This document shows, one piece after another, positions 34,909-61,616 of a stretch of 64,000 nt of DNA. Under the pieces are notes generated by a model, which made no database searches, had not been told where the DNA came from, and saw only the letters and a program-made list of their open reading frames with translations. A program made the position numbers and the translations under genes. Position 1 is the first letter of the stretch. Each line of letters opens with the position of its first letter. The DNA comes from an uncultured virus (IMG/VR IMGVR_UViG_3300045927_000049). Lineage: Duplodnaviria > Heunggongvirae > Uroviricota > Caudoviricetes. Location: IMG/VR virus record IMGVR_UViG_3300045927_000049; one strand, 5' to 3'.

Positions 34909-35136
34909 TTACCGGCGTGAACCCTGAACAGAGGTGCCGCGCGACGTGCCGTGGGCCTTTTCGATCAGCCCCATTGAGGCAAGCGTCTCGATCATTGCCG
35001 AAATCGATCCCTTGGAAGAGATGCCCAAACCAATGGCGATCTCCCTGAAGGTCGGGTTATGCCCATGCATCTCCTCGAATTTGTTGATGAAGTCGAGAAA
35101 CTCCTGTTGCCGCTCTGATGGTCTGGCTGAAGCCAT
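34909..35136 (-). CDS. LexA-type winged-helix DNA-binding protein (no peptidase domain)
   Basis: SERQQEFLDFI...GHNPTFREIAIGLGISSKGS...L..MGLI. Confidence 0.8.
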   Translation of the reverse strand: MASARPSERQQEFLDFINKFEEMHGHNPTFREIAIGLGISSKGSISAMIETLASMGLIEKAHGTSRGTSVQGSRR

Positions 35137-35147
35137 CTCCGTTCTCC

Positions 35148-35363
35148 TCACCTCCATTGTTCGCGTTTCCATTTGATGCATGCTTGCAGCACCTTGATGT
35201 TCTGCTCGTGCTGGCTCCCATAGAGAAGGCCATGGCTGCGGCCATCTCCATGGATCATAACGATCCGCGCGTCGATCTTCGGGTAGACATGGATCGCCTG
35301 CCATGGATAGAGGCAACGGATCAGCTTCCGGTATTCCTTAACCAGCGCCGGTATCTCGTCCAT
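35148..35363 (-). CDS. Hypothetical protein
   Basis: 71-aa ORF in tightly packed operon. Confidence 0.5.
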   Translation of the reverse strand: MDEIPALVKEYRKLIRCLYPWQAIHVYPKIDARIVMIHGDGRSHGLLYGSQHEQNIKVLQACIKWKREQWR

Positions 35364-36309: not shown

Positions 36310-36800
36310 CCGGAATTGCTGTACATACGTACTGTACGTACAGGATGTATATACATACTGTATGATACAGGACGGACAGTACGTACTGTATCAGACTGTA
36401 CGGGATTTGTGAAATTTTGGATCGGGTGTCCGGGTTAGTATGTATCGCGTGACGCACACGCGCCTGCACGCGCGGGGGCTACGTATGGGTGGGGGGTAGT
36501 ACCCCCCACCATGCGCACATACTACATGTGGGGTCCATGCCCTACGACCCTGTGTCCTGATTATCCAATGAAATCAATGGGTTAGTGTACATCTAAGTGA
36601 TTGTAGTGATAGCGAACTGCACTCGAAGAGTGCACAGATTACAGTGTCACCCCATTGTTGTTGTCTCATTCTCTCTCTTACATCTTGATGTAAGAGAACC
36701 AGTGCTATCCCCTTATCCCCTCCTCTCACCATGTACCCTCAGTACCCTTAAGGGACTGAGGTGTGTGTGGTGATTGGCCTTCCATTGTCTTGGTGCCGAC
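36310..36800. other. Non-coding palindrome-rich tract beside terS (candidate packaging site or genome end)
   Basis: TACGTAC repeats, GGTGGGGGGTA/TACCCCCCACC palindrome, IHF consensus at 36572-36584, several hairpins. Confidence 0.45.
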
Positions 36801-36810
36801 AGTCATCTCG

Positions 36811-37395
36811 CTACTCGACATCTTCGATGTCTCCGTTGCTCTTTCCGGGCGAAACCTCTTGGGCATCAGGAAGAACCCTTGGTTCTGGATGTGAAACATG
36901 TTCGATGGTTTCATGCCGAAAGAGTTCGCGAAGTTTGCTTCGCAATTCCAGTTCCACTTCCTCCGGCCTTCTCTCCGTCCTGTCTTCGACAGAGCGAACC
37001 TCTCGAAACATCGAAACCAGATCGATTTTGCCTAAGGCAATCAATGCGGCGATCCGTTCCGATGGCTTCGCGTCTTCTCTCCGGCTTTCTTTCATCAAGC
37101 CGGAGAACACGTGCCGACGAATGGCCACGGCATCCCGATGCATAGCCTTCTCCTGCTCCGTAAGGAGCATTTCCACCCTATGTTTGATCTTGTCCTGCTT
37201 CATCAGCTTGGATGCCGAGACATTGACCGTCGATGACTTACCGCCCGCACTGTAAGTAGCGCGGTAAGCTGCCGAGAGCGTCTCTCCCCGAGCCACCAAT
37301 TGCGCGAAAGCTTCCTGCCTTGGTGTGAGATCGGAGGCCAGTCTGGTCGGCAAACCAAGGCTTTGTCGTAAACTGTTTTGCGGCATAACGGTCAC
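36811..37395 (-). CDS. terS: Terminase small subunit
   Basis: LTPRQEAFAQLVARGETLSAAYRATY...ASKLMKQDKIKHRV...RIAALIALGK. Confidence 0.8.
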   Translation of the reverse strand: MTVMPQNSLRQSLGLPTRLASDLTPRQEAFAQLVARGETLSAAYRATYSAGGKSSTVNVSASKLMKQDKIKHRVEMLLTEQEKAMHRDAVAIRRHVFSGLMKESRREDAKPSERIAALIALGKIDLVSMFREVRSVEDRTERRPEEVELELRSKLRELFRHETIEHVSHPEPRVLPDAQEVSPGKSNGDIEDVE

Positions 37396-37587
37396 CGTGT
37401 CCTAAACCCTATGGGGGTTTAGAAATTCTAGTCAGAACCCCGATGATTTGCCAAGTGGTCCGGCTCCAATACCCAAGGGGATTGGAGCGTCTGCGGGGGC
37501 GCATCATGCCCGCATCATGACGCGAGTTTTCTTCACGCCTGTTTCCCTACGCATTATGCGCAGGAGAAATCGCGCATGGAAAAAGGC

Positions 37588-37616
37588 TTGCCATTTGTCG
37601 TCCGGTTTGGGATTGT
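37588..37616 (+). promoter_or_regulatory. Sigma70-type early promoter
   Basis: TTGCCA-17 nt-GATTGT upstream of the structured leader. Confidence 0.5.
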
Positions 37617-37619
37617 TTG

Positions 37620-37935
37620 GGGGTCGAAAGCAGGATTGCTCCGACAGCGGAAAGCCGGATGGCTCCCGCCAAAAAGCATCTCTCCGGAGAAACCGGGGGC
37701 CGCAAGCACCGCTGTGAAGCGAAGCTTGGTGAAGGCAGAACAAATCCGGACAGTTTTGCGGCGATCATGGATAACGAAGTGATCGAAAGTCAGCGAAGCT
37801 GGTCGTGGCAAAGAGCAATCTTGTGATGCTTTGCCGCCCACACTCCTCCTCACGATTGCTGCGGGATCAAGCTGCAAACTCAGCAAAAGCTGAAAGGCGA
37901 AGCTTGGTCCTTCAACAATCCTGAAAGGATTACGT
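37620..37935 (+). ncRNA. Putative ~310-nt structured RNA / 5' leader, family unknown
   Basis: At least 10 helices identified by eye, G-U pairs consistent with + strand, possible pseudoknot and loop-loop contact. Confidence 0.6.
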
Positions 37936-37936
37936 T

Positions 37937-38542
37937 ATGACGAAAACTGCCAAAACCGTTGCCAAGTCGGAAGTCTCCTCCCGTGAGGAGCTGCTCGCCA
38001 GCGTCTCACAGTTTGAATTTCAAACTTGTGAGATCGTCGGCGGACGGAATTTCCCCATTGGGGAGAAATTCGACTGCATCAAGGTCGGGGTTTCCGGCTA
38101 CGGCAAGCCCTACACGGTCATCTCCGTCAACGGAGAAGACCGGTTCTGCGATCCGAAGAACCTCAAGGTTCTTAAGCCGATGACCGAAGCCAAGATCGCC
38201 GCCGCTAAAGCGGCGCTGGAAGAGGCAAAAGAGGCAACCCTGATCGTCGGCGGAACCATCAAGAATGAGAGTGAGAAAGCAGTTCTCATCTCTCATCATG
38301 GCTGGTTCAAGCCGAAGTGGTTTCCCAAGTCTCTGGTCACCAAGATTGGTGACCATGAAGACGGCGAGCAGAACCTCTATGAGGTTCCTCGTTGGAAAAT
38401 CCATGCCGATCATGGTCCGGCTGGCGTGAAGGCTCTCGCGGCACTCCAAGATGGCTATGAAGCCATGTTGGAGCCGGAAGAAAAGCCGGAACCCAAGGTC
38501 GTCGTCCGTACCGGTAAGTATACCGGTAAGGTCAAGAAGTGA
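37937..38542 (+). CDS. Early hypothetical protein
   Basis: 201 aa, GAAAGGA RBS, ESEKAVLI...WFPKS motif. Confidence 0.8.
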   Translation: MTKTAKTVAKSEVSSREELLASVSQFEFQTCEIVGGRNFPIGEKFDCIKVGVSGYGKPYTVISVNGEDRFCDPKNLKVLKPMTEAKIAAAKAALEEAKEATLIVGGTIKNESEKAVLISHHGWFKPKWFPKSLVTKIGDHEDGEQNLYEVPRWKIHADHGPAGVKALAALQDGYEAMLEPEEKPEPKVVVRTGKYTGKVKK

Positions 38543-38620
38543 TCTCTGAAAAATCGCATGACCTCCCCTCCGAAAGGAGGGGAGAGCGGGCGATTTTGCC
38601 CTGAATGAGGAGCCAACAAA

Positions 38621-38797
38621 ATGCCATTTGATCCCAATGATCTCGCTGAAATGCTCTTGGTAAAAGAGCACTTCATCGATGAGCGAAACTTCGCCATGTC
38701 GATGCGGGATTGGCCGAAAGTTTCTGTCATCCGACAGAAACTCAAGCACGTTGAAAACCGGATTGCTTCGATCCGGTTTCAGCAAAAGACCGCCTGA
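38621..38797 (+). CDS. 58-aa cassette ORF 1
   Basis: Hand-translated MPFDPNDLAEMLLVKEHFIDERNFAMSMRDWPKV...; GAGGAG RBS; stop abuts repeat 2. Confidence 0.75.
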   Translation: MPFDPNDLAEMLLVKEHFIDERNFAMSMRDWPKVSVIRQKLKHVENRIASIRFQQKTA

Positions 38798-38863
38798 GAA
38801 ATTGCATGGGATGGGGTCCACTGGACCCCATTACGGGCAATTTCGCCCTTTTGAGGAGCCAAA

Positions 38864-39118
38864 ATGCAAGTTCTCACGAAAGCACAGAAACTCGCTTTGA
38901 AGCGAGTTTTTGATCGGACGCCTCTTTTCGTCCTTTGGGACGGAAAGTGCTTCATGCCGACTTCCACCGAAGGGTGGAATGCTCACAAGAGACTGGATCA
39001 ACCGACAATGACCTACCGGTCATTTCGGTACACCGCAGTCACCAGCTTTGGGACGTTAATCGTCCCATGGTGTGGAATGTGGCTGGCCATCGAAACCGAT
39101 GGCTACACCCACTCTTAG
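38864..39118 (+). CDS. 84-aa cassette ORF 2
   Basis: Ends VPWCGMWLAIETDGYTHS; RBS supplied by repeat 2. Confidence 0.8.
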   Translation: MQVLTKAQKLALKRVFDRTPLFVLWDGKCFMPTSTEGWNAHKRLDQPTMTYRSFRYTAVTSFGTLIVPWCGMWLAIETDGYTHS

Positions 39119-39189
39119 AGATCGCATGATATCTCCTCCGACTTGTCGGAGGGGATAGCGGGCAATCTCGCCCTATTGAGGAGCCAAAA

Positions 39190-39525
39190 ATGGTTGGAAT
39201 GCTGAACATCGGTACAGTGTCCCATGGGACACTGCGTCCGCAAGATTTGCTCCGTAGGTTTTCCCAAACCTACGAGCAATACTTCAGCGATGAAACGGAT
39301 TACAATCCGTTTCTTTACATGGCAGCTAACTTGTTAGCTGCCACTCTGGATGATCTCGAAGGAGATCATGTTGCCGACCACATCTATGAGCATGTCGATT
39401 ATACAATCGACAAGCTTATAGAGAAGCTGGAAGGCTTGGCTTCCCGTCATAACTGTTACTTCGGAACCACCGAAGGTGACGGTTCGGATTTCGGCTTCTG
39501 GCCGAATGAAGGCGGCGAAGCTTAG
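39190..39525 (+). CDS. 111-aa acidic cassette ORF 3
   Basis: GTVSHGTLRPQDLL...YFGTTEGDGSDFGFW. Confidence 0.8.
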   Translation: MVGMLNIGTVSHGTLRPQDLLRRFSQTYEQYFSDETDYNPFLYMAANLLAATLDDLEGDHVADHIYEHVDYTIDKLIEKLEGLASRHNCYFGTTEGDGSDFGFWPNEGGEA

Positions 39526-39597
39526 GAATTGCATGACTTCCCCACTGAGAAATCAGTGGGGAATGCGGGCAATTCCGCCCTGAATTGAGGAGCCAAG

Positions 39598-39819
39598 ATG
39601 ACTGAAAGAGCACAACTTTTCGCCCAGAGACTTCGTGATCTGGACGAATGCATTGCTGAAAGCAAGGCATCGGAACACTACGATCCGAAAAACGACTACT
39701 GGACCCATCTCAAAGAGATGGAAATTCAGGCTTTCGCCAAAGGCGATGGTGTCGTTTGGCGGGTCAATGACCGGCCTTACATCGTCTTCGATACCATCGA
39801 TAGCCGATGGTATTCCTGA
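39598..39819 (+). CDS. 73-aa cassette ORF 4
   Basis: RBS supplied by repeat 4; stop abuts repeat 5. Confidence 0.75.
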   Translation: MTERAQLFAQRLRDLDECIAESKASEHYDPKNDYWTHLKEMEIQAFAKGDGVVWRVNDRPYIVFDTIDSRWYS

Positions 39820-39887
39820 GAAATTGCATGGGATGCCCTCTCTCAGAGAGGGCATTACGGGCAATTTCGCCCTTTGAGGAGCCAAAC

Positions 39888-40067
39888 ATGATCCTGCTTT
39901 GGATATCGACATATATGTCGATCTTCACGATGGGAATTCTTGCCATCATTGTGGGGACTTCCCCACAATTCGGTTGGCCGGAATATTCCGCCACCATTCT
40001 TGCGATACTTTTCGGTATCGGCGCAGCAACGACGTTGCTGGAAATTGGTCGGAGGGAACGTCGATGA
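39888..40067 (+). CDS. Two-TM cassette ORF 5
   Basis: MILLWISTY..., two hydrophobic helices, basic tail. Confidence 0.7.
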   Translation: MILLWISTYMSIFTMGILAIIVGTSPQFGWPEYSATILAILFGIGAATTLLEIGRRERR

Positions 40068-40147
40068 TCTACATTCTTGTTCCAGTGATAGCTTTGCTAT
40101 CGTGGTACATCGTTTATCTCGAAACAACGAAAGGAGATCGCAAATGA
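40064..40147 (+). CDS. 27-aa single-TM peptide
   Basis: MIYILVPVIALLSWYIVYLETTKGDRK, ATGA-coupled on both sides. Confidence 0.55.
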   Translation: MIYILVPVIALLSWYIVYLETTKGDRK

Positions 40148-40449
40148 AATGTCTCCACTTCGTTGGTTTCACCAACGAAGAACAAATCAGGAAGGCTTCC
40201 CGAATATTCGGGGAGCCTCATTTCATACATCCCAAATGGGATGTCAGAGCCGAGCAAGAATTGGATGTAGACGATGTAATCGTCTACGCCAATGGAACAC
40301 CGAGGAGAGCGGAAGAACGTGAGTTCTTCCTGAGTGTGGGCGGCAAGCAAGGGGGTGGGCGCATGATGCGCCTGCCCCCTTTTTTTTGCTCAAAATTCAG
40401 CTACTATCGCAGACATGCGCTACATACCCGGATACGAAGAACGCTATAG
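40144..40449 (+). CDS. Hypothetical protein
   Basis: LHFVGF...RIFGEPHFIHPKWDVRA; AAGGAG RBS; frame reads through a terminator. Confidence 0.65.
   Translation: MKCLHFVGFTNEEQIRKASRIFGEPHFIHPKWDVRAEQELDVDDVIVYANGTPRRAEEREFFLSVGGKQGGGRMMRLPPFFCSKFSYYRRHALHTRIRRTL
40350..40388 (+). terminator. Intrinsic terminator ending the cassette operon
   Basis: GGGGGTGGGCGCA/TGCGCCTGCCCCC stem plus T8. Confidence 0.75.
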
Positions 40450-40762
40450 AATAGATCAAAACGGCAATGTTTTCTGTAATCATAAGAATAGATTTCTGAA
40501 ACCAACCCTGCACCCTTCAGGGTATCTATTTGTGTCTCTAGCAAAAGGGACAAAAAATTATCCATTGCGAAAGCAATACAAGATCAATTACTTAGTCGCA
40601 CTTACTTATATCGGACCAAGGCCAAAGGGCTTGGTCTGTTGCCACAATGATGGGAACAAACTCAACAATCACCTCTCGAATATCAGATGGGACACCCAAA
40701 AATCGAACATCCACGATGCAATCGTGGCCGGTACGTTTACCGGGCGACCACGTAAGCACTAG
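40415..40762 (+). CDS. NUMOD4-HNH homing endonuclease
   Basis: IPGYEERYRIDQNGNV, GYLFVSL, CHNDGNKLNNHLSNIRWDTQKSN; AT-rich. Confidence 0.88.
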   Translation: MRYIPGYEERYRIDQNGNVFCNHKNRFLKPTLHPSGYLFVSLAKGTKNYPLRKQYKINYLVALTYIGPRPKGLVCCHNDGNKLNNHLSNIRWDTQKSNIHDAIVAGTFTGRPRKH

Positions 40763-45699: not shown

Positions 45700-45740
45700 C
45701 CTTCTTCCTTAGATGCTTCCACAAAATCGGTTTGGTGGGA

Positions 45741-45768
45741 TTGACAGCCCAGCCGAACCGGATATGAT
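45741..45768 (+). promoter_or_regulatory. Sigma70-type promoter
   Basis: TTGACA-16 nt-TATGAT. Confidence 0.65.
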
Positions 45769-45825
45769 TTGGGCCGGACGACAAAAAACCGGTCCGACTA
45801 TAAAGAAACGTTTCAGGAGAAACAA

Positions 45826-46917
45826 ATGAAAATTTCCGACGCCAAGACCCTGCTTACCACCATTCTCAAGTACAACATCGACCAACATCTGGCCGGTGTT
45901 TCGCATAAGCACTTCATTATTCCTTGCTTCATCGGTGATCCCGGTGTCGGCAAGACTTCCATTCCCAATCAGGTTGCCGCCGAAGAGGGCGTTCCTCTTC
46001 ACACCACCATCATCGCTCAGTATGACGCTGGCGAAATGGGTGGCTTCGGCATTCCCACAGACGTGGTTTTCGAAGAGGAAGACGACGAGGGAAAAATCCG
46101 CCGCTACACTGAGAAGCGTGTGATCCGGGCACGCCCCGATTATCTGCCTGATCCACGTACTCCGGAAGGCGTTGTCGGTATCTGGAACCTTGACGAACTG
46201 ATGCAGGCGTTTCTGGCCAACCAGAACATTTGCAGCCAGATCGTCAACGAGTACCGGGTTGGCGAACATCCGATTTCTCACGGCATCACCATCTGCTGCA
46301 CCGGCAACAAGCCTGAGAACAAGGCCGGTACGACCACCATGCCGATGCACTTGAGGGACCGTCTGATGTTCATCAACATCGAAGCGGACCACAAGGACTT
46401 CAATGACTACGCCAACCAGCGCGGTCTGCATCGTTGGGTCCGTGCCTTTGTCCAGAAGAACCCGGCGTTCCTTCACAAGTTCGAAGTCGGCGTCAACGCT
46501 TTCCCGTCACCACGTTCTTGGGAGCGGACTTCGGAACTCCTGAAGATGGGCCATGCGCCGCACATCCTGACCGAGTGTCTGTATGGCCAGATTGGTGAGG
46601 GTATGGCTTCGCAGTTCCTTGCATGGGTCAAGGTCGAAGACCGGTTGCCGAGTGCCGAGGATGTTGTGAAAGACCCTGAAGGTGTGCCGGTCTTCGGGGA
46701 TCGCGATGCCGACGTGAACTACATGCTGATGGCGAACCTTGTTGAGGTGGCGGACAAGAAGAACCTTGGGCAGATCATCAAGTACCTGAAGCGCATGCCC
46801 AACAAGGAATTCGTCGCCATGTGGGCCAAGGATGTCCAGCAGCGGCATCCGGAAGTCAACGACCTGAAGGAGATGACAGAGTTTAAGCTGTCCACGTTGA
46901 CAAAAATCCTCATCTGA
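45826..46917 (+). CDS. MoxR/dynein-related AAA+ ATPase
   Basis: GDPGVGKT Walker A, WNLDE Walker B, TGN, LRDR, PSPRSW. Confidence 0.9.
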   Translation: MKISDAKTLLTTILKYNIDQHLAGVSHKHFIIPCFIGDPGVGKTSIPNQVAAEEGVPLHTTIIAQYDAGEMGGFGIPTDVVFEEEDDEGKIRRYTEKRVIRARPDYLPDPRTPEGVVGIWNLDELMQAFLANQNICSQIVNEYRVGEHPISHGITICCTGNKPENKAGTTTMPMHLRDRLMFINIEADHKDFNDYANQRGLHRWVRAFVQKNPAFLHKFEVGVNAFPSPRSWERTSELLKMGHAPHILTECLYGQIGEGMASQFLAWVKVEDRLPSAEDVVKDPEGVPVFGDRDADVNYMLMANLVEVADKKNLGQIIKYLKRMPNKEFVAMWAKDVQQRHPEVNDLKEMTEFKLSTLTKILI

Positions 46918-46997
46918 TACTGCGGTTTCCGGTCCTGTTTCGGCGGGACCGGTTTCCGGAATATCAACGAAGGGTAGCAAGAAGTTAGGAGAAACAA

Positions 46998-47873
46998 ATG
47001 GCTAATCTTTCACATCGGGCCGTCATGGTGGTCCTCAATCAACGTGCATGGAAGGGCAAGGCGGTGGACCGTGAGGTTGCTGCACAAGCCGAAATAAACG
47101 CCAACGCAGAACAGGGCACGATGACTGTCATCAAACAGTTGACGCCGAAGTACCTGATCCAGCCGATTACCAACATCATGCAGGAAGGGCGGGCGGCGCA
47201 TTACAAGAAGACCCTTCCCGGTCTGTTCCGTGGTCAAGCTATCCTGCCGACGAAGATGTTCGAGGATTACATGGTCGAGCAGCAGGAGTACGGCGACCAG
47301 TTCTTCAGTGCCGTCGATAAGTTCATCGGCATCTATCCGGATATCCGCGAAGCAGCGAAAGGCAAGCTGGGCACGTCCTATAAGGAAAGCGATTTCCCGA
47401 CAGCCGATGCCATCCGCTCGTACTTCGACTACAAAGTGACGCCGGGACCGATCCCTGAAGCGACTGACTTCCGCCTTGAGGGGGTCAGTGCCGAGAACAC
47501 CGCTGTCTTCAGCAGCGAGGTTCAGGATAGCGTCAAGCAACTCTATGCCGACGCCACCAAGACCATGTTCGACAGGGCGCGAGCCTATCTGGAGAACTTC
47601 TACCGGCAGGCTAAGAACTACAACGTCAAGGCACCGGGGGCCATGCTGCGGGACGCCACCATCGATCAGATGAATGCGTTTGCCGAGATGGTCTGCGACA
47701 TGAATATCACTGGTGATCCTCTGCTGGAACAGGTTGGCAAGGAACTCCTCAAGGACTTCGTTGACCTGTCGGGCAAGGAACTCCGCAAGTCCGCCGAGAT
47801 GCGCACCGAGATTGCCGACAAGGCCAAGCGCATTCTCGACAAAATGACCCCGGTCAAGCGTATCGCTGCCTAA
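46998..47873 (+). CDS. DUF3150-like helical protein
   Basis: Lies between AAA and VWA genes; LGTSYKESDFPTADAI, MNITGDP. Confidence 0.7.
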   Translation: MANLSHRAVMVVLNQRAWKGKAVDREVAAQAEINANAEQGTMTVIKQLTPKYLIQPITNIMQEGRAAHYKKTLPGLFRGQAILPTKMFEDYMVEQQEYGDQFFSAVDKFIGIYPDIREAAKGKLGTSYKESDFPTADAIRSYFDYKVTPGPIPEATDFRLEGVSAENTAVFSSEVQDSVKQLYADATKTMFDRARAYLENFYRQAKNYNVKAPGAMLRDATIDQMNAFAEMVCDMNITGDPLLEQVGKELLKDFVDLSGKELRKSAEMRTEIADKAKRILDKMTPVKRIAA

Positions 47874-47880
47874 ACTCTGT

Positions 47881-47903
47881 GAGGGGGAGCGATCCTCCCC
47901 CTT
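47881..47903 (+). terminator. GC hairpin (possible terminator)
   Basis: AGGGGGAG/CTCCCCCT stem right after stop; weak U tract. Confidence 0.4.
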
Positions 47904-47938
47904 ACACCTTCACTCTGAGCCGGACGATTTCCGGCATA

Positions 47939-47967
47939 TTGACCGGAGCCGCTGGCGGCGGTATGGT
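47939..47967 (+). promoter_or_regulatory. Sigma70-type promoter
   Basis: TTGACC-17 nt-TATGGT flanked by CGGACGAT motifs. Confidence 0.6.
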
Positions 47968-48005
47968 CGGACGATAAAAATCAAGCCCTACAGGAGAAAC
48001 TCAGC

Positions 48006-49277
48006 ATGTCATTGATCACAGATGGTGAAGAGAAAATCACCAAGGCAAAGACCAAGCTGGTGCTCAAGCACCCGTTCTTCTCAATCGTCGCGCTTGGCCT
48101 TCTCTACAGGAACGCGACCGAAGACCACATGCCAGAGATCAATACGATGGCCACGGATGGCCGTCATATCTGGTGGGACGAAGAGTTCACGGACAAGCTG
48201 ACTGTCGCTGAGACGGTCGGCGTGATTTGTCACGAGGTTCTGCACGTTGTCTTCATGCACTGCCTTCGGCGCGGTGCCCGTGACCCATTGATCTGGAACA
48301 TCGCTTGTGATTACGCGATCAATCACATCGTTCTGGATGCCGGTCTGACCTTGCCATCCGACGCATTGTTTGAGCCGAAGTACAAGGATTGGTTGGTCGA
48401 TGCGATCTATGATGACCTGATCAAAAACCGTCCGGATTTGCCGAAGCGTATCACTCTGGGACGCCCATGCCCCGATGGCGATGATGGCGAAGGCAACGGC
48501 AAGCTTCCCCCGCAACCGGGTAAGGGAGACAAGGGCAAGGATGGCAAGACGCCTCTGTGGGGCACCGTCATGGAGCCGCGCAACGATGACGGCACGCCGA
48601 TGAGCGATGCCGAGAAGCGCGAACTGGAAGAGGAGATCAAGATCAAGGTGGTGCAGGCCGCTGAAGCAGCCAAGTCAATCGGCAAGCTGCCGGTCGCTCT
48701 TGAAGGTCTGGTCAAGGCTGTCGGCAAGCCGACTGTCGATTGGAAGGCGTACATCCAGCAATGGGTGAGCGGCAAGGTGCCGGACGATTACACTTGGAAG
48801 CGCCCGAACAAGAAGATGCTGGGCCTCTACGGTCTGGTCACTCCGTCCATGCAGTTGAACGGCTGCGGCACTGGCGTCATCTCCATCGACACATCCGGTT
48901 CCGTGAGCAACGAGGAACTGGTGAAGTACATCACCGAGATCGCTGGCGTCGTGGAAATCTGCAACCCGGACAAGCTGTACATCATGCAGCATGACACTCA
49001 CGTCCACCGTGTCGATGAGTGGGAACAGGGCGATACCTTCGACCACCTGAAGATCACTCACCGTGGCGGCACATGCATCCGTCCGTCATTCGAGAAGGTC
49101 AATACCTTCGATGAACAGATCGACTGGATGATCTGCTTCACTGACATGGGGATCAATGACTTCCCGTCCGTGAAAGAGGCACCGGATTTCCCGGTTCTGT
49201 GGGCGGCGACGGGTCCGGACATTGCTCCCTTCGGTACCTATCTCTCGCTTCGTGATCCGATCAGCGCGGTGTCGTGA
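48006..49277 (+). CDS. Metallopeptidase + VWA domain protein (DUF2201-like)
   Basis: TMATDG, HEVLH, WNIACDYAIN; IDTSGS MIDAS, GGT, FTD. Confidence 0.9.
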   Translation: MSLITDGEEKITKAKTKLVLKHPFFSIVALGLLYRNATEDHMPEINTMATDGRHIWWDEEFTDKLTVAETVGVICHEVLHVVFMHCLRRGARDPLIWNIACDYAINHIVLDAGLTLPSDALFEPKYKDWLVDAIYDDLIKNRPDLPKRITLGRPCPDGDDGEGNGKLPPQPGKGDKGKDGKTPLWGTVMEPRNDDGTPMSDAEKRELEEEIKIKVVQAAEAAKSIGKLPVALEGLVKAVGKPTVDWKAYIQQWVSGKVPDDYTWKRPNKKMLGLYGLVTPSMQLNGCGTGVISIDTSGSVSNEELVKYITEIAGVVEICNPDKLYIMQHDTHVHRVDEWEQGDTFDHLKITHRGGTCIRPSFEKVNTFDEQIDWMICFTDMGINDFPSVKEAPDFPVLWAATGPDIAPFGTYLSLRDPISAVS

Positions 49278-49948
49278 TGATGGATCGTGAGAGGGCAGTC
49301 CTGACCTTCAAGGATATCAGGACACTCAAGCGGATGATGTCGGCGTATAGCGCCGACATCAAAGACGTAAGGCGCGGCAAATCGTGGAACGTCGAGCACG
49401 AGATCAGGGGGCTCTGTGAGCGCATGAAGCTGATGCGCAAGGGACAGCGGGACCGCTCCGCTGATCCTTTGCAAGTCAAGAAAAGCTTCGCTCTCAATGC
49501 CGAGAAGGATATCAAGAGATGCCTGACGGACATATGTAGCAAGCGCAAGTTCAACGAAACAATTATCGTAGGAGGAAAAGACACAGGAACATGTGAATAC
49601 AAGGAGGGGATTAACCGATACTCCAAGCCTACAGTAACGCTGTGCGTAGGGCATATGTGGTATCGCAATGTCTTCAAGAACATCTACGACCACAATCGGC
49701 TGGTCCAGAATGATTACATCATCCTGTCAGCCGTCGAGTACCGGACCAATGTGCCGCATGTCAGGCTCTACGAGGCTGTCGCTTACGGCATCAGCGAGAA
49801 GGGACAAGTGAACGGCTGGATCGGCCAGTCGAAACTGGGTGAGCAACTCTGTTCCTTCAGGACAGACAAGCAAGCCGCAATCCAAGCAGCGCAAAGGCTG
49901 ACAGTCAGGTCAGTCAATGAACAAATATCAGGAGAAACAAATGGCTAG
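49274..49948 (+). CDS. Hypothetical protein
   Basis: 224-aa coupled ORF. Confidence 0.7.
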   Translation: MMMDRERAVLTFKDIRTLKRMMSAYSADIKDVRRGKSWNVEHEIRGLCERMKLMRKGQRDRSADPLQVKKSFALNAEKDIKRCLTDICSKRKFNETIIVGGKDTGTCEYKEGINRYSKPTVTLCVGHMWYRNVFKNIYDHNRLVQNDYIILSAVEYRTNVPHVRLYEAVAYGISEKGQVNGWIGQSKLGEQLCSFRTDKQAAIQAAQRLTVRSVNEQISGETNG

Positions 49949-51074
49949 CATCATCGAAAGCATCAAGGCAGCGGAAGCAGAGGCTATGGAACCCAAGATC
50001 AATCCCGAATTCAGAGACTTGCTCGACATCCAGTCGGAGGTTTCCTACGAGGAACTGAAGAAGATGATCGAAGCGGAGGGTATTCGCGATCCCATCGTCG
50101 TATGGGCAGAGCAGAACGTGATTGCGGACGGTCATAACCGTTTCAAGATCGCCAAGGAACTGGGCATCGAATGCCCACGAGTGGACAAGTCCTTTGCCGA
50201 CGAGGCCGAGGTCAAGACGTGGATCATTCGCAACCAGTTGGGGCGGCGCAACCTCACTCCGGCACGCTTCGAATACTACATCGGCAAACTCTACAACGAG
50301 CAGAAGGCTGAGACTGCACAGGAAAAGCAGGAAGGCGGCGGCAACGTTGCCGAGAAGCTGGCGGCTGAATTCGAAGTGTCGGAGAAGACCGTTCGTCGCT
50401 ACGGCACCAATGCCAAGGGCATCGACGCCATCGAACGCATCCGTGGCAAGCTTGAGAAGAACAAGCAGTTGTCGAACAAGCCGACCTACACCAGTGAGGA
50501 AGTCGCCGTCATCGGACAGGCTCCCAACACCACGGTTGCGGCGAAGACCCTGAAGAACATCGATGACTATAAGAAGCAGAAGGCAGAGAAGAAGCAGGAA
50601 GACAAGGCTATCAAGGCTGCTGTGGTGGACAAGCAGACCTACTACGGTGTCGCCCTGTGTGAGCCAGACTTCTCCGCTTCCGGTTTCTCCATCTCGACAG
50701 AGCCGAAGCCGACGCTCGACAAGAACGCCGCCTGCTATGTGATCGTGCCGGATGAGTGGCTGGCCGAGGGCATCAAGCTTCTCGACAAGTGGGGTCTGCG
50801 CTACGAGGCCAGCTTCATCTACTGGTCATCGGCCAAGATCGATGACGGTCAGTTCTCCAAGATCGTCCATCGCAACGTGTTGCTGGCGACCAAGGGCCAG
50901 ATCACCGGACCCAAGGCAGGGCAGGAAGCATCCTCCTGTGTCCTGCTCAACGGTGATATCGGTCCTGCCGTGGTCAAGCTGATCGACAGCTACCACAACG
51001 GCAACACCAAGAAGCTGGACATGCGCCGTGGTGCCAAGGCCAACGGCAATTGGGAGATCGTCTCCGTCAAGTGA
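49941..51074 (+). CDS. ParB-like N-domain fused to degenerate MT-A70-like domain
   Basis: EGIRDPIVVW...IADGHNR...NQLGRRNL; C-terminal YGVALCEPDF...WGLRYEASFIYW...LLATKG. Confidence 0.8.
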   Translation: MASIIESIKAAEAEAMEPKINPEFRDLLDIQSEVSYEELKKMIEAEGIRDPIVVWAEQNVIADGHNRFKIAKELGIECPRVDKSFADEAEVKTWIIRNQLGRRNLTPARFEYYIGKLYNEQKAETAQEKQEGGGNVAEKLAAEFEVSEKTVRRYGTNAKGIDAIERIRGKLEKNKQLSNKPTYTSEEVAVIGQAPNTTVAAKTLKNIDDYKKQKAEKKQEDKAIKAAVVDKQTYYGVALCEPDFSASGFSISTEPKPTLDKNAACYVIVPDEWLAEGIKLLDKWGLRYEASFIYWSSAKIDDGQFSKIVHRNVLLATKGQITGPKAGQEASSCVLLNGDIGPAVVKLIDSYHNGNTKKLDMRRGAKANGNWEIVSVK

Positions 51075-51137
51075 TTGGGTAGCGAGGGGCCGGTTCGTCC
51101 GGCCCCTGTCTGAGCAATCACGCTCAAGGGGTAGACC

Positions 51138-51320
51138 ATGACCAAGAAAGAACAAGCCGCCGCTCTGCGCAAGCAGATCGAATACCTCAAGCTGACCGAG
51201 GGCGCGAAGCTGTTCAATCTCACCGAACGCTATCGCGAGAACTCCAAGCGGGCCATCGCCTTCAGGAAGAAGATCGACCGACTGGAGACTGAAATCGAGA
51301 AACTAGAGGGGGGCAAATGA
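51138..51320 (+). CDS. Small coiled-coil protein
   Basis: 60 aa, AAGGGG RBS. Confidence 0.6.
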   Translation: MTKKEQAAALRKQIEYLKLTEGAKLFNLTERYRENSKRAIAFRKKIDRLETEIEKLEGGK

Positions 51321-60704: not shown

Positions 60705-60885
60705 TAAAAACCGTGCGGTCATTTACGATGAGCGGGACTACGAGGCGACAGGCACAAGCTATCTTTCCCATACGGTCTACCTTTCAGAGGAACCGGCAGC
60801 GGTGGATACCGGACTGCTTGACGCCAGTGGCAACAAGATCATGCGTGATGCAGAAAAACGAACCATCGGGTTCATAAAATTTTAG
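60667..60885 (+). CDS. Small hypothetical protein
   Basis: DTGLLDASGNKIMR...IGF. Confidence 0.6.
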   Translation: MTMIKRNRVVPVDKNRAVIYDERDYEATGTSYLSHTVYLSEEPAAVDTGLLDASGNKIMRDAEKRTIGFIKF

Positions 60886-60893
60886 GAGAAACA

Positions 60894-61616
60894 ATGTCAG
60901 ACGAACAGTTTGTCCAAGCCATGCAGGCACTGCATGAACTTGGAGATCAAGTGGCTGTCCCAATGAAGGGCGGCAAGTCCTACGTCATGGTCAAGGACCG
61001 CATCGAAATCTTCCGCAAGGAATTCGGTGATCGCTTCGGTATCAGGACTGAGGTTGATTACAAGGAAGGCTTCGATCAGGGAGCGCCGGTCGTGGCGTCT
61101 GCCTTCATCCTCAACAGCGAGGGACTTGTGATCGCATCCGGATGGGCTGTCGAGTTCGTCGGCTCGACCAAACTGACCGATGCCTCGCCGGTCGAGGTGG
61201 CTGAGACGAGCGCGATAGGACGCGCCTTGGCCTGCTTCGGCCTGCATGGTGGAGAGTACGCCTCACTGGATGAGATGCAGACCCACCAGAGGAAGGAAGA
61301 ATTCCGCGCGGCACCACGCACTGTGGCCAAGCCAGCCAATGGCAACGGTCCCGACAGACCAGTTGAGCAGAAGCCAATGCCAAGCAGATGGTACGTACCG
61401 ACTGTCGATGACTGGGAAATCCAGCCCGACGAAGCGGCGCAGAATGTCATGGACGAGATCGACCGCATCGATACCACCCATGAACTCGGCAAATACTGGG
61501 GTGAACTCAAGCCGTCGCTTGACACCCTCAAGAAATTTGCGGGAGCGCAGGACATTATCGCAGAGATCAAGGCCACGTTCGCAACGCGGCACAACACAGT
61601 GGGGTCAAGGAAATGA
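60894..61616 (+). CDS. Single-strand annealing protein (Rad52/Erf-like)
   Basis: GKSYVMVKDRIEIFR, EVAETSAIGRALA..G..GGEYASLDEM; next to exonuclease. Confidence 0.75.
   Translation: MSDEQFVQAMQALHELGDQVAVPMKGGKSYVMVKDRIEIFRKEFGDRFGIRTEVDYKEGFDQGAPVVASAFILNSEGLVIASGWAVEFVGSTKLTDASPVEVAETSAIGRALACFGLHGGEYASLDEMQTHQRKEEFRAAPRTVAKPANGNGPDRPVEQKPMPSRWYVPTVDDWEIQPDEAAQNVMDEIDRIDTTHELGKYWGELKPSLDTLKKFAGAQDIIAEIKATFATRHNTVGSRK

Follow-up and report, generated by a model that had tools for sequence, protein, structure and literature searches.

A candidate RNA motif spanning stop codons and ribosome-binding sites in the early operon of an uncultured soil phage

Introduction

The early transcript of phage T7 is cut at five intercistronic RNase III sites, RNase III cleavage activates the translation of some phage messages, and a 5'-terminal hairpin stabilizes Escherichia coli mRNAs. 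Early phage regions are full of small host-takeover genes, whose coordination and exchange are poorly understood outside T7 and T4. The present study concerns a 64,000-nucleotide stretch of DNA (the window), which is most of the genome of an uncultured tailed phage from soil metagenomes (IMG/VR record IMGVR_UViG_3300045927_000049). Within positions 38546-39890 of its + strand lie five modules of ~75 nt, E1 to E5, each of which extends from the stop codon of one small gene to the ribosome-binding site (RBS) of the next. The modules are a real and new RNA motif with a narrow distribution, a candidate for a new RNA family, and they very probably act at the RNA level, as cis-acting parts of one polycistronic early mRNA, rather than as DNA recombination sites.

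Among the closest described counterparts are the early RNase III signals of T7, which like the modules are a set of hairpins, each about two helical turns long and interrupted by an internal loop, that are similar in sequence within one phage and lie between the cistrons of one early transcript made by the host RNA polymerase. The length of two turns (~20-22 bp), the internal loop, and the intercistronic position are the features of these signals that recur here. Sequence similarity is, however, absent, and cleavage of the modules is putative. In addition, the loop of the modules is symmetric (4x4 or 5x5) and consists mostly of non-canonical pairs, and each module is fused to a fixed RBS, a sequence complementary to the Shine-Dalgarno (SD) sequence, and a covarying mini-hairpin, with the stop codon at the foot of the stem. 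RNase III substrates of E. coli are typically two helical turns long, and internal loops can restrict cleavage to one bond, leaving protective 3' hairpins (PMC1540722).

Other phages also carry repeated elements beside early genes. The PeSLs of T4-type phages combine a sigma-70-like early promoter with a terminator stem-loop, and their homology is said to let small early open reading frames (ORFs) be swapped, lost, and reordered between related phages (PMC2839356, PMC4122927). PeSLs share with the modules the character of short, repeated regulatory cassettes that flank small variable early ORFs, and the modules too may provide homology for shuffling. Unlike PeSLs, the five modules contain no promoter-like site on the + strand, their hairpins are followed by GCCCU and not by a T run (terminator-like, 0/5), and they lie inside one mRNA and carry the RBS. 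In Cluster K mycobacteriophages the 13-bp start-associated sequence (SAS) GGGATAGGAGCCC is found a few nucleotides before the start codons of some non-structural genes, about half of its copies have imperfect inverted repeats ahead of them, with a spacer that varies, and its role is thought to be translational; the authors find little support for mRNA hairpins at the extended SAS (ESAS) (PMC3203893). The likeness consists of AGGAGCC before start codons (GGGATAGGAGCCC there, TGAGGAGCCAA here) and the upstream inverted repeats. Only AGGAGCC is common to both sequences, and the 13-bp SAS is absent here. Moreover, the 12 of 19 compensatory pairs found here contrast with the little hairpin support there, as do five tandem copies with 11-19 scattered ones, and the consensus and the host group differ.

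The attC sites of integrons resemble the modules as well, in that one imperfect hairpin accompanies each promoterless ORF of a co-oriented array and a conserved outer stem and conserved unpaired positions surround a variable centre. Here, by contrast, core sites are missing, no integron integrase was found, the module carries the RBS of the next gene, and the evidence favours the sense strand of an RNA. The split RBSs of T4 genes 25 and 38, together with RegB, which cuts at early GGAG SD sequences, are like the modules phage-specific RNA features at early translation starts, which set translation or inactivate early messages (PMC3014915). The T4 hairpin lies between the SD sequence and AUG, whereas the hairpin described here is upstream of the SD sequence. 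Scans of 53 window ORFs against Pfam and of 30 against PHROGs revealed no RegB-like gene.

Structure and covariation of the modules

Each module consists, in order, of an 8-bp outer stem, the internal loop AUGR/RCGG, an inner stem that varies and measures 8-13 bp, GCCCU, and the invariant RBS TGAGGAGCCAA. The conserved internal region is built of A.G, U.G, and G-C, then A.G or G.A, and then one variable position. E1 (38546-38623) has the outer stem AAAATCGC/GCGATTTT (38550-57/38590-97), the loop AUGA/GCGG, and the inner stem CUCCCCUCC/GGAGGGGAG, followed by GCCCU, TGAGGAGCCAA at 38606-16, and ATG at 38621; its minimum free energy (MFE) is -36.8 kcal/mol (z -5.0), and it scores 87.8 bits with the covariance model described below. 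In E2 (38795-38866; MFE -33.2, z -4.9; 78.6 bits) the stop codon TGA at 38795-97 abuts the outer stem GAAATTGC/GCAATTTC (38798-805/38837-44), and the loop is AUGG/ACGG. The stop codon TAG of E3 (39116-39192; MFE -33.7, z -4.2; 85.3 bits), at 39116-18, overlaps the outer stem GAGATCGC/GCAATCTC (39118-25/39162-69), which has one C.A mismatch, and the loop AUGA/GCGG is followed by a 13-bp inner stem with one U.G. E4 (39523-39600; MFE -39.8, z -7.0; 84.7 bits) likewise has a TAG, at 39523-25, that overlaps its outer stem GGAATTGC/GCAATTCC (39525-32/39569-76) and the loop AUGA/GCGG. E5 (39817-39890; MFE -33.9, z -5.0; 81.8 bits) has a TGA at 39817-19 abutting the outer stem GAAATTGC/GCAATTTC (39820-27/39861-68) and the loop AUGG/ACGG; E2 and E5 have identical flanks around unrelated inner stems. 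All five lie on the + strand.

These observations bear out most of an initial annotation of the locus, which had placed five structured elements here with the same arms, with ATGA facing GCGG in copies 1, 3, and 4 and ATGG facing ACGG in copies 2 and 5, and with an inner hairpin that stays paired (over 9-13 bp by that account, 8-13 bp here) while its sequence differs in every copy. The annotation also had each copy ending with GCCCT, the RBS, and ATG, and indeed the exact 11-mer TGAGGAGCCAA occurs five times in the window, always in a module and 1-4 nt before ATG. Its statement that each copy starts at TGA or TAG holds for copies 2-5 and needs correcting for copy 1, where the aligned TGA (38547) is out of frame and the real stop codon is the TGA at 38540-42.

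Several measures show that the hairpins are not a product of chance. The RNAfold z-scores range from -4.2 to -7.0, with MFEs of -33 to -40 kcal/mol, and for each copy none of 200 shuffled sequences folds as well. The five modules are the top interrupted inverted repeats of the 36-64 kb region, an unrelated palindromic pair at 36356-36400 ranking fifth among them. Covariation was evaluated with an alignment of seven modules, namely the five in the window and two from a related contig, L130 (R1 and R2). In this alignment 98.5% of the hairpin cells are paired and 12 of the 19 pairs show changes on both sides, as expected from the compensatory, structure-selected module that had been postulated; none of 500 shuffles matched this covariation, and the signal collapses if the partners are slid by 1-3 columns. 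The total helix measures 21-26 positions in all seven (8 bp, 4-5 loop positions, and 8-13 bp). A covariance model made from the seven modules and run with filters off gave exactly five strong matches in the window (78.6-87.8 bits, E 1e-18 to 1e-20), while the next-best match on the + strand scored 15.2 bits and the same five sites on the - strand reached only 25-30 bits.

The impression that the motif is not a described one was upheld by Rfam, whose families, self-cleaving ribozymes included, gave no match at gathering score in the window. At E<=10 in the region 37300-40500, the elements are overlapped only by mir-3204 (- strand, E4; 18.4 bits, E 3.8) and mir-605 (E5; 18.3 bits, E 5.1), and these weak rows were dismissed as chance-level. 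Other explanations considered from the sequence were also set aside, namely intrinsic terminators, promoters of the sigma-54 or sigma-70 kind in the arms, K-turn or tandem-GA motifs, N4-type hairpin promoters, CRISPR-like repeats, and MITE or REP elements with a RAYT; neither the sequence features nor the partner genes that define these were seen.

The 15.2-bit match (E 0.056) is a long interrupted hairpin at 51068-51150 (+ strand; arms 51071-93/51099-121) between two middle genes, with a stop codon TGA within the stem foot and the sequence GAGC-N6-GCUC. Its orthologue in a relative (L192:14043-14120) also has GAGC-N6-GCUC, and the outer and inner stems covary between the two. By sequence, these hairpins are marginal candidates for a diverged sixth member of the family.

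Mini-hairpin, SD pairing, and stop codons

The sequence that follows the hairpin can be paired in two ways. GCCCU can form a small helix with AGGAGC, adjoining the hairpin, and this pairing is present in the MFE fold of all five window copies. Alternatively, GRGC, composed of the last two loop bases and the start of the 3' arm, can pair with the GCYC after the hairpin to form a 4-bp mini-hairpin with a 6-nt loop, which is mutually exclusive with both the outer stem and the GCCCU-SD helix. Nine elements were compared for this pairing: the five window modules, R1 and R2, the sixth hairpin of the window, and the orthologue of the latter in L192. In them 36 of 36 mini-hairpin cells are paired, and the one pair that varies is G-C in six elements and A-U in three but never mixed, a result equalled by 6 of 500 shuffles. 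For four of the seven modules, the 3' fragment has the mini-hairpin as its MFE fold. The stop codons lie close to the stem foot: in eight of the nine elements their first nucleotide falls within a range from 3 nt ahead of the first base of the outer stem to 1 nt inside the stem, and only in E1 is the distance larger (10 nt).

A single early operon with a structured leader

The array lies inside what seems to be one transcription unit. At its head, outside the array, is a conserved leader (37400-37936, + strand) that aligns with three relative lineages (L131:1-470, L132:1-335, and L136:850-1420) and that in all four lineages occupies ~300-500 nt before a gene for a 201-aa protein. Compensatory changes are seen in 21 of its 60 predicted pairs, from only four sequences, and invariant blocks are GGTGAAGG, AGAGCAATC..GTGATGCT, GCGGGATC, and AATCCTGAAAGGATT. 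Rfam gave no match to the leader, which may be a new large structured RNA. Its last hairpin, AAUCC-UGAA-AGGAUU, overlaps the SD sequence of the 201-aa gene, and AAUCC can pair upstream instead, an arrangement that looks riboswitch-like. At the other end an intrinsic terminator (40349-40390, + strand), a 15-pair stem followed by a T run, closes the operon. A consensus scan detected no promoter-like or terminator-like site on the + strand inside 38546-39890. Because there is a strong 3' terminator and no such internal site, the array is regarded as internal to one transcript that starts with the structured leader.

The conserved flank of the modules includes both the SD sequence and a sequence able to pair with it, and all copies are oriented as the genes are. 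The alignment contains 12 wobble cells (G.U/U.G) that are legal only on the + strand, versus three C.A cells (C10.A51 in E3 and R2 and C17.A44 in E1). A role at the RNA level is thus what four features point to: the SD sequence can be paired, the mini-hairpin covaries, the stop codon is placed at the foot of the stem, and the whole array belongs to a single operon devoid of internal promoters.

Relatives and the order of the intervening genes

Relatives were fetched via the 201-aa gene (37937-38542, + strand), the first of the early operon, which has no assigned function and 18 homologue clusters at 57-100% identity, a number that suggests about 15 further lineages; the relatives fetched are L130/L131 (76% identity), L132 (short), and L136 (70%), of which the last is also represented by L192. 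L130 carries the two nearly identical modules R1 and R2 of the same type, whose loop is AUGUU/CGCGR in both, while the loop AUGR(N)/(N)RCGG is present in all five window copies. In L136 there are three modules of a second type, here called type B (L136:1996-2690). These begin with a GGGGAG-rich first hairpin and continue with GCUCUUGCG (GCTCTTGCG), a variable hairpin of 10-13 bp, and UUUYAGGAGCCAUC (TTTYAGGAGCCATC); the first copy follows a true intrinsic terminator. In two of the three MFE folds AGGAGC is paired with GCUCUUG in the basal stem of an interrupted hairpin of ~20 bp, and the third fold pairs the SD sequence with GGCUCC next to the stop codon. The recurrence of SD pairing by a GCYCU-like sequence in two architectures explains the conserved C after AGGAG. 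As the L136 stop codons are located 31-75 nt upstream, a ribosome could not open the SD-pairing stem there.

The ORFs between the modules are a 58-aa ORF (38621-38797), which has homologues in L130, L132, and L136 at 42-43% identity, an 84-aa ORF (38864-39118), a 111-aa ORF (39190-39525), whose L130 homologue is 41% identical, and a 73-aa ORF (39598-39819), which is without a homologue in L130 or L136; a hydrophobic 59-aa ORF (TM; 39888-40067) follows the last module. All are on the + strand. As had been supposed, the five are mutually unrelated (best all-versus-all BLASTP E = 0.56). The inter-module ORFs gave no Pfam match, and their sole PHROG match was a weak one to the 111-aa ORF.

The initial annotation had asked whether relatives hold different ORFs between the modules, and both L130 and L136 differ in content and order. 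In the window the 201-aa gene is followed by E1, the 58-aa ORF, E2, the 84-aa ORF, E3, the 111-aa ORF, E4, the 73-aa ORF, E5, and the TM ORF. In L130 the sequence is the 201-aa gene, a simple hairpin with an RBS, the 58-aa ORF, a module, the 111-aa ORF, another small TM ORF (TM'), a module, the 84-aa ORF, and an HNH gene; the 84-aa homologue (74% identity) thus follows the 111-aa homologue instead of preceding it, and L130 has another small ORF but lacks the 73-aa gene. In L136 type B modules separate the 201-aa gene, the 58-aa ORF, a new ORF, and a third TM ORF (TM''). The early-gene order of L136 is also permuted at places where there are no modules. Modules resemble their genome-mates more than those at orthologous positions elsewhere, and this likeness within genomes (R1 with R2, and the flanks of E2 with those of E5) indicates intragenomic exchange and fits homologous exchange or gene conversion. 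It would fit these patterns that the repeated modules supply homology for the reshuffling of the intervening genes, as a by-product.

On sequence grounds the module family appears to be confined to a narrow clade. The 16 loci found via a 318-aa protein of the same phage (15 more distant ones and the L136 contig) contained only the diverged L192 hairpin and no module of the window type; the AGGAGCC RBS motif was absent from nine of the 16 and sporadic in the others, and the nine loci examined for long interrupted hairpins had 0-3 each. A generalized pattern matched only the phage of the window and L130 in IMG/VR, and its 43 single matches in GTDB genomes, all at <=20.5 bits by the covariance model, were taken as chance. 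A loose DNA pattern gave at least 118 single matches in IMG/VR, which were taken as chance and left unused, and a tighter one found only identical copies (L126, L127) and a chance match inside a coding region (L125).

Possible mechanism and alternative explanations

As to how the modules work, we favour, as the likeliest single reading though one with less than an even chance, that they could be RNase III-type processing sites that also free the SD sequence through the mini-hairpin; it is the helix length and the internal loop, known features of RNase III substrates, that recommend it. Each element folds into a quasi-continuous two-turn helix of 8 bp, 4-5 non-canonical positions, and 8-13 bp. 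A double-strand-specific host endonuclease of the RNase III type would nick this helix in its conserved loop, much as the early transcript of T7 is cut. After the cut, the upstream message would keep a protective 3' hairpin, and the released 3' strand, now carrying a new 5' end, would refold there into the mini-hairpin GRGC-N6-GCYC. GCCCU, the anti-SD sequence, would thereby be pulled off the SD sequence, and the next cistron would be stabilized and translated. The fold with its covariation, the place in one operon, the covarying mini-hairpin, the capacity for SD pairing, and the position of the stop codons are observed; that the RNA is cut, by which enzyme, and in which direction translation changes are inferences.

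Several points tell against RNase III processing. The mechanism leaves the stop codon at the stem foot in eight of nine elements unexplained. The support for the mini-hairpin comes from one varying pair with at least two independent events, and its covariation is therefore suggestive, not proven. The anti-SD helix shows no covariation, with three invariant pairs, one that has a one-sided change, and one that is broken in two copies. Modelled SD accessibility after truncation rises in W3, W5, R1, and R2, is the same in W1 and W4, and falls in W2 (W denoting the window copies); the modelling of cut or ribosome-masked RNAs is inconsistent across copies and is not used as support. The RNA data consist of short Logan metatranscriptome contigs, which are fragmentary, of low depth, and show neither ends nor strand, and among these a contig of 38487-38637 spans E1 intact and a fragment of 39755-39886 spans E5 intact. 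Several contigs end within hairpins, but assemblers break at such structures in any case; the contigs with starts at 39592 and 39597 come from two studies.

A close rival, on balance rather unlikely but compatible with RNase III processing, is a relay of translational coupling without cleavage. A ribosome terminating at the foot of the hairpin would unwind the 8-bp outer stem, the freed 3' arm would form the mini-hairpin, GCCCU would leave the SD sequence, and the next cistron would initiate, so that translation of all five genes would be chained to the first gene, itself gated by the structured leader. Such coupling explains the placement of the stop codon better than RNase III does, and the outer stem of 7-8 bp approximates the known reach of a ribosome on a stop codon. 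The covarying mini-hairpin, the sixth element, in which the SD region is paired with the final codons of the preceding ORF, and the overlap of the last leader hairpin with the first SD sequence agree with it too. With the first 15 nt masked, modelled SD accessibility goes up in four of the seven modules, but the outcome is inconsistent, as W1 and W4 gain nothing and W2 loses, and SD occlusion is weak to begin with, the unpaired probability being 0.25-0.37 in five of the seven modules, 0.84 in W2, and 0.03 in R2. The relay also gives no reason for an inner stem of 8-13 bp or for the two-turn length, and it is unworkable for the L136-type modules because of their distant stop codons. The conserved internal loop, for its part, might be an operator: a phage RNA-binding protein, either a translational repressor or an antiterminator and possibly the 201-aa product, would recognize AUGR/RCGG and switch the early cistrons jointly. 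We consider this unlikely. The sequence of the internal loop is kept while both stems vary, the 201-aa gene, the leader, and the modules are co-distributed in the window, L130, and L136 lineages and were not found in the 15 more distant loci, and the protein model shows SH3/KOW-like barrels in tandem, a fold that many proteins binding nucleic acids have. The fold matches are, however, generic (Z<=7.3, TM about 0.3), and co-distribution inside one operon is not independent evidence; besides, the L130 loop differs in spite of 76% identity of the protein, and L136, with 70% identity, has a different module without the AUGR/RCGG loop.

The stability of the hairpins (-33 to -40 kcal/mol) and their intercistronic position, which is like that of stabilizer hairpins and REP elements in bacterial operons, would also suit passive stabilizers or insulators, which block exonucleases and separate the folding of cistrons and involve neither a factor nor a switch. 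Such elements would not need the conserved mismatches, yet A.G, U.G, and R.R are kept in all seven copies apart from one A.A, nor would they need invariant flanks, the GRGC/GCYC covariation, or a fixed position of the stop codon, and a purely passive role is therefore very unlikely. Least probable, and hardly to be expected, is that the modules are attC-type DNA recombination joints in which the folded strand is the substrate of a phage tyrosine recombinase that moves single-gene cassettes. The attC-like build, with a conserved outer stem, conserved unpaired positions, a variable centre, and one element per promoterless ORF, the differences in gene content and order among relatives, the identical flanks of E2 and E5 around unrelated centres, and a tyrosine recombinase in the genome can be cited for this idea, and the initial annotation had named a recombination joint as one possibility. 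In agreement with the annotation's own remark on the attC core, though, GTTRRRY or RYYYAAC occurs on neither strand of any of six elements, and the recombinase is Xer-like (54 bits versus a cut-off of 220) and ~24 kb away. An RBS that never varies, an SD sequence that is paired, and wobbles biased to the + strand are features of RNA, L136 genes are permuted even where modules are lacking, and the similarity of modules within a genome fits homologous exchange, all of which weakens the case for a dedicated joint. A composite of these ideas, which we hold to be decidedly unlikely though not as much as passive hairpins, would make of the modules portable joints between cassettes ready to be expressed: a two-state RNA relay (closed hairpin with the SD sequence held versus mini-hairpin with the SD sequence free) would chain the translation of unrelated early genes to the riboswitch-like leader, and in the DNA the same conserved arms would let co-infecting phages excise, insert, and reorder genes, which would amount to a phage-borne, integron-like array without an integron integrase.

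The phage and surrounding genes

The structural, packaging, and lysis genes (portal, TerL, major head, tail fibres, endolysin) occupy the - strand up to ~35 kb, a divergent region holds a LexA-like repressor (34912-35316) and a BrnA-like gene, and the + strand from ~37.4 kb carries the early and middle genes. Another IMG/VR record, G001 (57.5 kb, 94% complete), is identical over the region. The best relatives of TerL, at ~50% identity (<=53%), are Pelagibacter phage HTVC027P, phage DSL-LC04, and Planktothrix phages, and GenBank phages gave no DNA match to the window. A search of GTDB genomes with the A2 protein alignment found no relative and therefore gave no lead to a host or prophage. The only tyrosine recombinase found is a 281-aa protein encoded just past the window end (G001:49583-50053, about window 64115-64585); its NCBIfam matches are Xer-type, and the scan gave no match to the model for IntI, the integron integrase. 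This recombinase and the LexA-like repressor suggest a temperate lifestyle. For the 201-aa protein, no specific fold identity was accepted, as the matches were only generic SH3/KOW/WYL-like ones.

Further features of the window were recorded on their own account. The 318-aa protein (PF26125; 41497-42453) has >100 homologue clusters on contigs of 40-80 kb, with neighbours reordered between relatives, and can serve as a marker for this wider soil-phage group. An HNH/NUMOD4 homing-endonuclease gene (40415-40762) comes immediately after the operon terminator, and another HNH gene follows the L130 array (L130:7770-8190); because an ORF at 40144-40449, just before it, reads through the terminator into the HNH gene of the window, that gene may have been inserted recently. 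Several middle genes are headed by a second stereotyped start region, (C/T)AGGAGAAAC(A)AATG (45700-45826, 46920-46998, 47900-48006, 49900-49941, and 60860-60894), in three cases with a sigma-70-like TTGACA-N17-TAtnnT promoter just upstream. From these standardized start regions and promoters, the phage seems to use the host RNA polymerase and two standardized classes of RBS. Overlapping palindromes of GTAC/TACGTAC/TGTACA units at 36320-36400, between the side of the BrnA-like gene and repressor and the early operon, form a cluster that looks like an operator.

Significance

What is new here is the covarying mini-hairpin, the placement of the stop codon at the stem foot, and the second module type with the SD sequence in a basal stem. 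The modules constitute a compact natural part, in which a stop codon, a structured insulator, and an RBS join unrelated genes, and if they are cleaved they would be useful as intercistronic processing elements for synthetic operons. They also provide a testable two-state RNA model with support from covariation, and the relative that has the same genes in another order links regulatory repeats to gene shuffling in a group of phages unrelated to T4.

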